Below are positions 46,856 through 48,790 of a stretch of DNA of 64,000 bases, in pieces. Numbering within the stretch: the first letter of the stretch is position 1; each line of letters begins with the position of its first letter. Location: NCBI GenBank assembly GCA_016861205.1, contig BOKX01000001.1, positions 8,539 through 72,538 of the forward strand, given 5' to 3'. This DNA is from Patescibacteria group bacterium. GTDB lineage: Bacteria; Patescibacteriota; Microgenomatia; UBA1400; PJMF01. The translations under genes were made by a program, and so were the position numbers. Under the pieces are notes generated by a model that did no database searches, was not told the origin of the DNA, and was given only the letters and a program-made list of their open reading frames with translations.

Positions 46856-47835
46856 TTCACTTTCTGTTCAATCATTTCTAGAATCGCCGAGGCAACATCT
46901 CGGGGCTGACCTTGAATAGGATAGTGGTGCATTCTCAGGCCGGGTGAAGCGTTGACTTCAATGACTCCAGCGCGAGTTTGATTGACAATTGGGGTGGTTA
47001 AGTCCTGACACATGATGTCGATACCGATCACATTCAGGTCGCAGGCTCGAGCGATGGTTTCAAACAAAGTCTTGTTTTCTGGGCAGACCTGGTCGGTTAC
47101 ATCCCAGGCTTCGCCGCCGGTGGACAGATTGGCAGTTTTGCGCAGAGCCACCTCTTGGCCTGGGGGGACAACTGCCTCAAGCTCCAATTTCTGGTCGGCC
47201 AGATTTTGACGAACGGTGTCATCAACTTCAATTAAGGTTAGGTTGTAGGTGTGACCTTTACCGCGCCAGGGGTGTTGGTTTTTGATCTCGATTAGTTCGG
47301 CAATCGTGTGTTCTCCGTCCCCGACCACATGGGCTGGTTTGCGAAATGCCACTGCGACTAGCTGGTAGTCGACACAGACTACCCGATACTCAGTCCCCTG
47401 GAGCATTTCTTCACAGATCGACTCTGGTTGCTGTTGCCCTAGCCAGAGTTCGCGGACCGCCGCCGCGTCGGCTACGCCGACGCTGACGTCTTTCCCGTGG
47501 CGACCACCGACTGGTTTGACCACTACCGGGAACTGAAGTTGAGACAACTGGTCAAAATCCGCTTCCGACTTGATCAACACAAATGGCGCCGTGGGCAACT
47601 GAAAGTGGCTTAGGACGAGCTTGGTGAGTGGTTTGTAGTCAGCGATAGTTTTGCCGACTGAGGACTGCCAACTGGTTCTCGAGCCACGGGTGTACCATTG
47701 GTGGCCGTTTTTTGACATCAGGATTGTTTGGCGATCGCCCAACAACTGACACTCGATACCACGCTTGGCCGCGGTTTCAGCCATGATGCGGGAGCTGGCT
47801 TCCAAGGGTGGGCGGTTGGTGGTGGTTTCAGACAT
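46852..47835 (-). CDS. ATP-grasp ligase resembling the N-terminal module of cyanophycin synthetase CphA (paralog 1)
   Basis: FPVVVKPVGGRHGKDV, PAHVVGDGEHTIAELIEIKNQHPWRGKGH, ANLSTGG, GVIEVNASPGLRMHHYPIQGQPRDVASAILEMI. Shares the identical HTIAELIEIKNQ stretch with its neighbour. 8-nt overlap with the upstream DUF1704 gene. Confidence 0.72.
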   Translation of the reverse strand: MSETTTNRPPLEASSRIMAETAAKRGIECQLLGDRQTILMSKNGHQWYTRGSRTSWQSSVGKTIADYKPLTKLVLSHFQLPTAPFVLIKSEADFDQLSQLQFPVVVKPVGGRHGKDVSVGVADAAAVRELWLGQQQPESICEEMLQGTEYRVVCVDYQLVAVAFRKPAHVVGDGEHTIAELIEIKNQHPWRGKGHTYNLTLIEVDDTVRQNLADQKLELEAVVPPGQEVALRKTANLSTGGEAWDVTDQVCPENKTLFETIARACDLNVIGIDIMCQDLTTPIVNQTRAGVIEVNASPGLRMHHYPIQGQPRDVASAILEMIEQKVK

Positions 47836-48790
47836 GAGGCACTTCCTCTATCACTTGATGAAATTGATTTTTGACACCGATTTCATAGATACCTTGACGA
47901 TACTTGGCTAGGTCATCAAAGAAACTAGGATACAACAACTGCTTAGTTTCGGCTGTGGGGGCATATTTGTCAATCTCCTCGAGACTAATCCGACCCAAGT
48001 AGAGGTGATAGGGATTGTGAGACTCATCTTGGAGCCAGTGCCAGATCTGTAAACAACCCTCGAGGTAGCAAATATCCTTAGTTGGACCACCGGGCTGGGA
48101 TGTGTCTGTCAAACCGCGTTTTGCCCGCAGTGTATGAAGCCAAGACATGCGTTCACTGATGCCCAAAGCGCGAAGCTGGGCATAGGTCTCAGTAAATGAG
48201 TACCGCTGCGCCAGCCAGGTGGTGAGGTATGTTCGAAAGGTTTTGCGCATGTAACGGCCGCTAAACAGGTTGGTATGAAGGCCGGCCAAGCCTTCTTCAG
48301 TACGGCGGAAATGGTCGTCAGCCGCTGTGTAATCCGGCCAGTTTTGGAGTTGATGATTATGAATGCGCAGGTAATGCGTTTCGAGTTCATGGCGGTACAC
48401 ACCTTGGAACTCGAGAGGTGAGTAGATCAGGGGCAGCCGAAACTCGATCTTATCAGGTGAAACTCGACACTGTGTGACCATTTGGTCAGTAAAAACGACT
48501 TTGAGCGGCTCTTTCAGCCGATAGGCGTGATTAAACTGGTCGATCGCTTCTCGAATACTGGCTTGGGTGACAATTTCAGTCTTTGGTTTCCAGGGGTCAA
48601 CTGTATTGATGTGAATGATCATTTCTCGAGCAAACTCGGCCAACCGGTCCTTAGGGAGTCCCCAGGCATGCAGTTGATCGGTTGCGATGTTCTGTCGGTA
48701 GGTAAACTGGGGATTATAGGTTTGGTCGGCCAAAAAATGGTTGTACTCTTCAACCAAGTTAGTGGGTGTCAGGTGCGAAATAATCTGCAT
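47828..48790 (-). CDS. DUF1704 'QEGLA-motif' family protein, putative metallocarboxypeptidase (MATCAP-like)
   Basis: HExxxH-type motif HELETHYLR followed by the family-typical EEGLA (RRTEEGLAGLHTNLF). 320 aa, a length typical for the family. 1-nt overlap with the upstream ATP-grasp gene. Confidence 0.6.
   Translation of the reverse strand: MQIISHLTPTNLVEEYNHFLADQTYNPQFTYRQNIATDQLHAWGLPKDRLAEFAREMIIHINTVDPWKPKTEIVTQASIREAIDQFNHAYRLKEPLKVVFTDQMVTQCRVSPDKIEFRLPLIYSPLEFQGVYRHELETHYLRIHNHQLQNWPDYTAADDHFRRTEEGLAGLHTNLFSGRYMRKTFRTYLTTWLAQRYSFTETYAQLRALGISERMSWLHTLRAKRGLTDTSQPGGPTKDICYLEGCLQIWHWLQDESHNPYHLYLGRISLEEIDKYAPTAETKQLLYPSFFDDLAKYRQGIYEIGVKNQFHQVIEEVPHV

Follow-up and report, generated by a model that had tools for sequence, protein, structure and literature searches.

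A MATCAP-like carboxypeptidase gene coupled to RimK/RloC-type ATP-grasp ligases in Patescibacteria, and a possible add-and-trim cycle on a Glu-Glu membrane-protein tail

MATCAP/TMCP proteins were recognized only in 2022–2023 as writers of the tubulin code, in which ATP-grasp ligases of the tubulin tyrosine ligase (TTL) and TTLL families extend an acidic tail and carboxypeptidases (VASH, MATCAP, CCP) trim it. The human members MATCAP/TMCP1 (KIAA0895L) and TMCP2 (KIAA0895) are tubulin-tail carboxypeptidases/deglutamylases; TMCPs of humans and Tetrahymena trim back alpha-linked polyGlu chains and depend on a Glu in the penultimate position (PMC10499314). Systems in which a ligase and a peptidase modify a tail are also known from bacteria: in the polyglutamylation of ribosomal protein S6, an ATP-grasp alpha-L-glutamate ligase (RimK) is paired with a peptidase that removes its product (RimB, a retropepsin-like protease). 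The rloABC genes of Pseudomonas aeruginosa encode a secreted retropepsin (RloA), a seven-transmembrane (7-TM) protein whose transglutaminase domain is inactive (RloB), and an ATP-grasp protein (RloC) (PMC12239564). Here we describe a candidate system in which a ligase and a peptidase are paired, found in a stretch of 64,000 nucleotides from a Patescibacteria group bacterium (GenBank assembly GCA_016861205.1, contig BOKX01000001.1, positions 8,539 to 72,538; hereafter the window, whose own numbering is used below); in it, the gene for a MATCAP-like protein directly follows the genes for a RimK/RloC-type ligase and an RloB-like 7-TM protein. The features of this trio are:

47828–48790, minus strand: MATCAP-like (PF08014) putative metallocarboxypeptidase, ATG start, 320 residues; assigned by Pfam, alignment with human MATCAP, AlphaFold2 and Foldseek
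48374–48391, minus strand: its HExxxH motif, HELETH (H134-E135-L-E-T-H139, residues 134–139), invariant in 40 homologues
48284–48298, minus strand: its EEGLA motif (E165-E166-G-L-A, residues 165–169), with the predicted third metal ligand
48790–50073, minus strand: RloC-like/RimK-type ATP-grasp ligase (ATPgrasp_ST), 427 residues; PF14397 E 9e-59, 199 bits
48793–49212, minus strand: retropepsin-like C-terminal domain of the ligase, catalytic Asp replaced by Asn (ALVNTGRFRS); from AlphaFold2 and Foldseek
50085–51068, minus strand: RloB-like 7-TM protein (PF14402 E 2.3e-24, 86.7 bits), lacking the inactive transglutaminase domain
50088–50147, minus strand: predicted cytoplasmic C-terminal tail of the 7-TM protein, GRYTGLRLLEWLRFKSIIEE, with a Glu-Glu end; candidate substrate
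50088–50093, minus strand: terminal Glu-Glu codons (E326-E327) of the 7-TM open reading frame (ORF) at 50085–51068

A preliminary description, made from the letters of the DNA alone, had assigned the ORF at 47828–48790 to the DUF1704 family on the strength of HELETH and EEGLA and had taken this to be the family of MATCAP; both assignments are borne out by profile, sequence and fold. The ORF matches PF08014 (MATCAP, formerly DUF1704) with 83.3 bits (E 2.1e-23; cut-off 27), and its residues 6–310 align in phmmer with the catalytic domain of human MATCAP (PDB 7z5g, also 7z6s; E 6.8e-27), with 28% identity to the human protein in a full-length alignment. In the phmmer alignment human HEIGTH (H280/E281/H285) stands opposite HELETH, and human TEEGLA (E316) opposite TEEGLA; the substitutions E281A and E316A each inactivate human TMCP1 (PMC10499314). 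H134, E135, H139, T164, E165, E166, G167, and A169 are invariant in an alignment of 40 sequences, and TEEGLA starts 25 residues past H139 (the second His of HExxxH), which is the family spacing. The AlphaFold2 model of the protein has a mean predicted local distance difference test score (pLDDT) of 95.9; compared with MATCAP structures, as the preliminary description had proposed, it matches 7z5g/7z6s in Foldseek against the PDB with E ~1e-18 and TM-scores of 0.81–0.82 over ~329 columns, and beyond these structures the best match drops to a TM-score of 0.43. No transmembrane or hydrophobic segment is predicted in this protein or in the other soluble proteins of the operon. The ORF is thereby confirmed as a genuine full-length member of PF08014.

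The narrower model that the preliminary description had paired with PF08014, the TIGR02421 equivalog 'flavohemoglobin expression-modulating QEGLA motif protein', does not describe this protein: at 70.9 bits the ORF stays far below the cut-off of 338.65, its motif reads EEGLA, and blastp to the proteobacterial members gives 51–53 bits, so that we reject this identity. The protein belongs to a short form, found mostly in Patescibacteria, with a much nearer relationship to human MATCAP. The QEGLA proteins share its Pfam family and motifs and, in at least one case (Mesorhizobium, below), a link to an ATP-grasp gene; however, they are a long form, often fused or adjacent to N-formylglutamate amidohydrolase, and score only 37–58 bits against the window or human proteins. 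The likeness to human MATCAP/TMCP covers Pfam family, fold and catalytic residues, and the predicted chemistry would be shared as well, that is, stepwise C-terminal removal next to Glu. The two differ in that human MATCAP carries an N-terminal microtubule-binding extension, whereas the window protein is the catalytic domain only; moreover, the window organism has no tubulin substrate, and the gene sits in an operon with the presumed antagonist ligase.

We surveyed the neighborhood of the gene in one genome per species (80 loci, with layouts obtained by tblastn; 78 with enough upstream sequence to be evaluable). In 73 of the 78 the gene next to it on the upstream side is that of the RloC-like ligase, most commonly with a 4-nucleotide overlap, and the 7-TM gene is immediately upstream of the ligase gene in nearly all loci; a different partner, a PD-(D/E)XK nuclease, is present in only three (L037, L043, L047). 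The loci are nearly all from Patescibacteria (Paceibacterota, Woesebacteria, Peregrinibacteria, Cerribacteria), and three metagenomic look-ups show the same gene arrangement. The preliminary description had pointed to ATP-grasp genes overlapping the MATCAP-like gene on both sides; this is true of the window, where the ligase stop and the MATCAP-like start share one base (TAATG) and the MATCAP-like gene overlaps the first of two downstream CphA-like ligase genes by 8 nucleotides. Only the upstream half of the arrangement is conserved: the CphA-like ligases and an accompanying 261-residue protein occur in only about a quarter of the loci, between the MATCAP-like gene and mnmA, and are lineage-specific additions, leaving the RimK/RloC-type ligase as the sole conserved ligase partner.

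Further evidence of coupling comes from gene fusions. In a metagenome-assembled genome (MAG) of Peregrinibacteria (L083, 6669–9047) one ORF of 792 residues joins the RloC-like ligase, a degenerate middle domain and the MATCAP-like domain. An exhaustive search of 1.84 billion cluster representatives (50% identity) returned 1163 family members at E <= 1e-3, at least 6 of which are ligase-MATCAP fusions of 644–787 residues (P0382, P0402, P0417, P0422, P0425, and P0437; 144–263 bits to the ligase in blastp). The trio of 7-TM, ligase and MATCAP-like genes is also found between wholly different flanking genes (L095/L096), and MATCAP-like paralogues outside the cluster adjoin genes of the ATP-grasp_4, ATP-grasp_3, and GSH-S-like types (L081, 6910–10226; L085, 3036–6193). 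Among the long forms, the gene of a QEGLA protein on a Mesorhizobium plasmid adjoins one for an N-formylglutamate amidohydrolase and is followed by one for a GshB-like ATP-grasp protein (L091, 4004–7701), and on a Vibrio plasmid the amidohydrolase is fused to the long-form QEGLA (L090, 4573–6564). The coupling of the MATCAP-like gene to ATP-grasp ligases is strong and recurrent; a survey of such neighborhoods had been among the checks that the preliminary description proposed.

The commonest gene string, present in most loci, is uvrA, transglutaminase-core, uvrC, holin-like, 7-TM, ligase, MATCAP-like, mnmA (43918–57794 in the window; among loci L001–L086); it mixes DNA-repair, tRNA-modification and envelope genes and has been retained by very divergent members of the Patescibacteria, with MATCAP-like identity falling to 27%. 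Dozens of MAG records among the loci (L007–L086) are titled 'uncultured Pseudomonadales bacterium', or also 'Vitreimonas', 'Limisphaerales' or 'Methylococcaceae', and carry this Patescibacteria-type string; such taxonomic labels look unreliable.

The preliminary description had likened the locus to a TTL/MATCAP pair, and this part of its proposal needs correction: no ligase here belongs to the TTL family. PF03133 (TTL family) has no match at E <= 0.01 in any of the three ligases of the window, and the profile of the upstream ligase finds as its best PDB match RimK, the S6-glutamate ligase (5zct/4iwx, E 2e-5), against E 0.57 for TTLL7; TTL-family identity is rejected on these grounds. The tubulin code nevertheless follows the same logic with a homologous trimmer; what differs is that the window ligases are of the RimK/RloC and CphA-G types and that the substrate is not tubulin. 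With TTL and MATCAP thus a poorer fit, the closest functional analogies would be RimK with RimB and a TTLL polyglutamylase with a TMCP deglutamylase. The upstream ligase scores above the cut-off of PF08443 (RimK; 47.9 bits) and below that of TIGR00768 (59 bits; cut-off 143). Of the RloC-type profiles, PF14397 is matched well above its cut-off (199 bits) and TIGR02291 'alpha-L-glutamate ligase-like' below it (229 bits; cut-off 314.2), which makes the protein an RloC homologue, not an equivalog. Its identity is 62–87% among the best 120 listed of more than 4500 homologues, and this conservation suggests an important function; the carboxypeptidase is far less conserved (27–55%).

The C-terminal ~130 residues of the ligase gave nothing in an hmmsearch against the PDB, and hhalign against single RloA sequences gave probabilities of 0.4–1.9% (E 0.026–0.16). 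Retropepsin families (PF13975) are weakly matched by 20 of 32 ligase members, and the AlphaFold model of the domain (pLDDT 76.7) retrieves only retropepsin folds in Foldseek (E 1e-4 to 1e-3), including RloA (9g58), RloA2 (9g59), and DUF785 (2pma). The position of the catalytic Asp is occupied by Asn in 61 of 72 sequences (Asp in 5, His in 4, Lys and Ser in 1 each), with conserved Arg residues next to the substituted Asn (e.g., NTGRFRS). The model and these substitutions point to a fused retropepsin-like domain that is catalytically inactivated. A retropepsin-like module goes with the ligase in RimK/RimB as well, and there too the acceptor has an acidic C-terminus; here, however, the module is fused and has lost its catalytic Asp, the presumed working peptidase is the MATCAP-type metalloenzyme, and the candidate acceptor is a 7-TM membrane protein, not S6.

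The system is a relative of RloABC: its 7-TM protein and ligase share with RloABC a homologous 7-TM domain (PF14402), ATP-grasp domain (PF14397/TIGR02291), and retropepsin fold as well as the order of the 7-TM and ligase genes; the rloABC loci of Legionella and Aeromonas show the proteobacterial arrangement. The differences are several. The window 7-TM protein lacks the transglutaminase domain (PF14400, inactive transglutaminase, has no match in it); the retropepsin is cytoplasmic, fused and inactive instead of secreted and active; a MATCAP-like gene is added; and the window proteins fall below the NCBIfam RloB and TIGR02291 cut-offs (for RloB, NF052267, 58 against 900). A further difference is the C-terminus of the 7-TM protein, which in the window reads ...RFKSIIEE (tail-end peptide ...LEWLRFKSIIEE).

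This Glu-Glu end recurs at other loci. Of 72 7-TM orthologues, 48 end in Glu-Glu and 58 in Glu; among the other ORFs of at least 150 residues in the same loci the figures are 6 of 750 (0.8%) and 78 of 750. Neither conserved neighbor shares the feature (holin-like protein, 0/63; transglutaminase-core protein, 0/56), and the MATCAP-like protein shows it once in 78. RloB orthologues of gammaproteobacteria, all at least 64% identical to the Aeromonas protein, end in Glu-Glu in 0 of 120 cases and in Glu in 1 of 120; these have a secreted RloA partner and no MATCAP-like partner. The encoded terminal Glu run of the 7-TM orthologues has a length of 0 (14 loci), 1 (10), 2 (20), 3 (12), 4 (15), or 5 (1), and Glu-Glu persists although the tails have diverged (...GLEE, ...TPEE, ...DAEE, ...NTEE, ...DTEE). 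Tails with and without Glu-Glu number 7 vs 14 in loci with CphA-like genes and 41 vs 10 in loci without them, a comparison confounded by phylogeny. Hydrophobicity and the positive-inside rule place both the tail and a strongly basic loop (residues 192–206) in the cytoplasm; by this prediction, the ligase and the MATCAP-like enzyme should share the cytoplasmic side with the tail. We sought Glu-Glu-tailed neighbors at the paralogous MATCAP-like loci and found none.

The remaining genes of the operon and its conserved neighbors are:

46852–47835, minus strand: stand-alone CphA-G-domain-like ATP-grasp ligase 1, accessory; TIGR02068 E 1.2e-93, 315 bits
45821–46855, minus strand: stand-alone CphA-G-domain-like ATP-grasp ligase 2, accessory; TIGR02068 E 5e-75, 253 bits
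45039–45824, minus strand: 261-residue protein, accessory, often duplicated; co-occurs with the CphA-like ligases
51114–51482, minus strand: Holin_4_2-like protein with four transmembrane segments, upstream neighbor; PF04020 E 6.9e-22; seen in 63 loci
52860–54740, minus strand: membrane-anchored transglutaminase-core protein, 626 residues; PF01841 E 7.5e-13; seen in 56 loci

The six minus-strand genes from 45039 to 51068 are tightly packed with overlaps, the junctions being, in gene order, an 11-nucleotide gap after the 7-TM gene, TAATG, the 8-nucleotide overlap, GTGA, and ATGA; CphA-like ligase 2 overlaps its neighbors by 4 nucleotides. The two CphA-like ligases align over the whole G domain of CphA1, which extends the peptide C-terminus (ligase 1 with residues 152–462 of 7lgn, E 1e-56; ligase 2 with 7wac, E 1.5e-48), and both are stand-alone, without the N domain and the Mur-like M domain. 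Because these domains are absent, the two are not cyanophycin synthetases; that identity is also rejected by TIGR02068, for which they score 315 and 253 bits against a cut-off of 850, the match covering the G domain only (CphA residues about 150–480). The 261-residue protein has no significant Pfam or PDB match; its family has a 'YKLRFGY' motif, is frequently duplicated in tandem and travels with the CphA-like ligases, and PF13480 matches weakly in 2 of 18 members, so that it is possibly a FemAB-like GNAT protein.

Taken together, the Glu-Glu tail statistics, the predicted cytoplasmic topology and the penultimate-Glu requirement of TMCPs suggest that the Glu-Glu tail of the 7-TM protein is lengthened by the ligase and shortened again by the MATCAP-like enzyme. 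The conserved core would be three co-translated genes, for the RloB-like 7-TM protein, the RimK/RloC-type ligase and the MATCAP-type carboxypeptidase. In the proposed cycle the ligase would attach amino acids to the carboxylate at a C-terminus, alpha-linked Glu being the likeliest, and the MATCAP-like protein, predicted from its HExxxH motif and Glu ligand to be an active metallocarboxypeptidase, would form the trimming half of this cytoplasmic system and take the added residues off singly. The most likely acceptor would be the predicted cytoplasmic Glu-Glu tail of the 7-TM protein itself, the length of which would then set the state of this membrane protein; RimK's own substrate likewise ends in Glu-Glu. 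The inactivated retropepsin-like domain may bind the acidic tail, and in the window lineage the added CphA-like ligases and the GNAT-like protein may diversify the appended residues. We put the probability of a cycle in which the ligase extends and the carboxypeptidase trims, most likely on the 7-TM Glu-Glu tail, at about one half. What the analysis shows is the family assignment, the fold and the conserved motifs of the MATCAP-like protein, the gene linkage and fusions, the statistics of the Glu-Glu tails and the position in the trees; that the enzymes are active, that Glu is what they add, that the 7-TM tail is their substrate and that a regulatory role follows is inferred from these.

Four observations weigh against this reading. 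About a third of the 7-TM orthologues lack a Glu-Glu end (e.g., INT, ITT, EKKS, LER), mostly in the sub-clade of the window protein, although the window protein itself ends IIEE. The proteobacterial RloB control is taxonomically narrow, being confined to gammaproteobacterial proteins close to that of Aeromonas. The synteny from uvrA to mnmA is kept as a whole, so that part of the linkage could be frozen gene order. Finally, deletion of rloB or rloC rescues a Pseudomonas rloA1-3 periplasmic-protease mutant (PMC12239564), which is more easily reconciled with export of the RloC product than with modification of a cytoplasmic tail.

The last observation leads to the rival that survives best, in which the product of the ligases would be an acidic peptide or polymer (poly-alpha-Glu, or one resembling cyanophycin) that is either free or exported; the 7-TM protein would serve to export or anchor it, and the MATCAP-like enzyme would limit its length or recycle it in the cytoplasm, replacing the role of secreted RloA in Pseudomonas. 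The rescue implies a product that reaches the periplasm, the RloA channel is positively charged and RloA cleaves polyGlu, and RimK also produces free poly-alpha-Glu (PMC12239564). The G domain of CphA1, to which the accessory ligases are similar, elongates a polymer, and with the retropepsin module catalytically dead here another peptidase would be needed. This rival, however, leaves unexplained why the 7-TM Glu-Glu end is kept only where a cytoplasmic carboxypeptidase is present, and it assigns export to a 7-TM family without demonstrated transport activity; we regard it as rather unlikely, though to be taken seriously.

A distinctly less probable alternative is that the ligase and carboxypeptidase act on the C-terminus of another protein (e.g., ribosomal S6) or on small cytoplasmic peptides, with the 7-TM protein as scaffold or regulator. 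RimK/RimB is a precedent (PMC12239564), the best solved relatives of the ligase are S6-glutamate ligases, and MATCAP-like paralogues adjoin ATP-grasp genes without any 7-TM gene. Nevertheless, the pair and the 7-TM gene are nearly always translated together in the conserved loci, and no other conserved neighbor ends in Glu-Glu (holin-like 0/63, transglutaminase-core 0/56), nor does any at the paralogue loci.

It is very improbable that the cluster serves to assemble or edit a peptide of the cell envelope (such as the stem or cross-bridge of peptidoglycan, or a decoration of the teichuronopeptide type), with the MATCAP-like protein as a muropeptide-type carboxypeptidase: the Pfam label of PF14397 ('sugar-transfer associated'), weak Ddl-like matches, the protein that may be a FemAB-like GNAT, and the sortase and PKD surface protein encoded close by would fit such a role, but glycosyltransferase and Mur-type genes are missing from the conserved core, the genes of the CphA-like ligases and the GNAT-like protein are accessory, and the known MATCAP-family members act on alpha-carboxyl tails of proteins (PMC10499314). 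To the absence of any functional coupling, with a housekeeping peptidase held beside the ligases by frozen gene order in reduced genomes, we give the least credence of all, since the retention of the whole string from uvrA to mnmA, including genes of unrelated function, accounts neither for recurrent in-frame ligase-carboxypeptidase fusions nor for the trio with different flanks (L095) nor for the independent association of the family with other ATP-grasp subfamilies.

If the ligase and the MATCAP-like enzyme do act in turn on the 7-TM tail, they would constitute a post-translational regulatory cycle in Patescibacteria, the biology of which is largely obscure, and the MATCAP-like gene would offer a biochemical handle on the Pseudomonas Rlo system, which affects osmotic tolerance, antibiotic resistance and biofilm formation. 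A Tn-seq (transposon-insertion sequencing) paper on Patescibacteria makes no mention of the genes of the trio (PMC10633639).

The preliminary description had further called the ligase/trimming cycle ancestral, and this suggestion gains support from the position of the eukaryotic proteins. The human catalytic domain matches Patescibacteria proteins over their full length with 107–186 bits (28–37% identity) and proteobacterial QEGLA proteins with only 37–47 bits; its score against the prokaryote-type representative P0343 is 215 bits (38% identity), and P0343 is encoded in a 7-TM, ligase and MATCAP trio, the 7-TM tail of which ends ...IIDTEE. A neighbor-joining tree of 84 sequences nests the human protein within the clade of Patescibacteria, with 99 of 100 bootstraps in agreement. 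A second neighbor-joining tree of 148 sequences included 18 eukaryote-type representatives and six more, their nearest sister sequences, that were taken as eukaryotic as a whole group on the basis of one that lies on a eukaryote-like contig; here the eukaryotic group is monophyletic in 59 of 60 bootstraps and clusters with L081, P0343, and L084, leaving the window protein and L026 outside, in 58–60 of 60. Both trees are built from distances and take the long QEGLA form as root, so that long-branch effects are possible. At face value, then, the trees derive eukaryotic MATCAP/TMCP from the prokaryotic clade whose genes share operons with those of RimK-type ligases. The paralogues of L081 and L085, which lie outside the conserved cluster, count among the nearest relatives that the eukaryotic clade has in prokaryotes.

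One may go further and propose that the trio is a self-contained, reversible C-terminal polyglutamylation switch on a membrane protein, a prokaryotic 'tail code' widespread in Patescibacteria, from which MATCAP/TMCP was acquired and retargeted from the ...EE tail of a membrane protein to the ...EE(Y) tails of tubulin; we offer this larger scenario tentatively, as a possibility that has more against it than for it. The RimK-type ligase operon, the recurrent fusions and the Glu-Glu membrane-protein neighbor would provide a testable model for the origin of a tubulin-tail enzyme and its role before tubulin. In the literature searched we found no discussion of the origin of MATCAP/TMCP and no link between MATCAP or its bacterial relatives and ATP-grasp ligases; DUF1704 is mentioned there only in a Plasmodium genome comparison. 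An article by Iyer and colleagues (Mol Biosyst, 2009) reportedly linked ATP-grasp ligases to peptidases and discussed a bacterial origin of TTL.

The eukaryote-like contig that bears one of the six further sequences of the larger tree is metagenomic, with 67% GC (L093, 188–3175); its MATCAP-like gene lies ~650 nucleotides from a divergent eukaryotic-type tubulin gene and beside a VPS9/RhoGEF gene, and the contig resembles a compact eukaryotic genome.

Several other features of the window deserve mention. In the transglutaminase-core protein encoded between uvrA and uvrC the triad C363-H406-D423 is apparently intact, transmembrane segments are found at both ends, and its ORF overlaps that of uvrC by ~125 nucleotides. 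A sortase gene (PF04203) is directly downstream of a gene for a secreted protein that has two PKD domains and, at its C-terminus, a hydrophobic anchor (41953–43848, minus strand), and this pair recurs after mnmA in several related loci; a 401-residue protein at 40722–41927 (minus strand) matches no Pfam family. The window contains a complete 16S rRNA gene (38071–39551, minus strand) and no 23S or 5S match within its 64 kb, and the nearest tRNA-Ile is more than 5 kb from the 16S gene; thus, the rRNA genes appear to be unlinked. A bacterial class A RNase P RNA is matched at 15504–15833 (plus strand) with 105 bits (gathering score 100).

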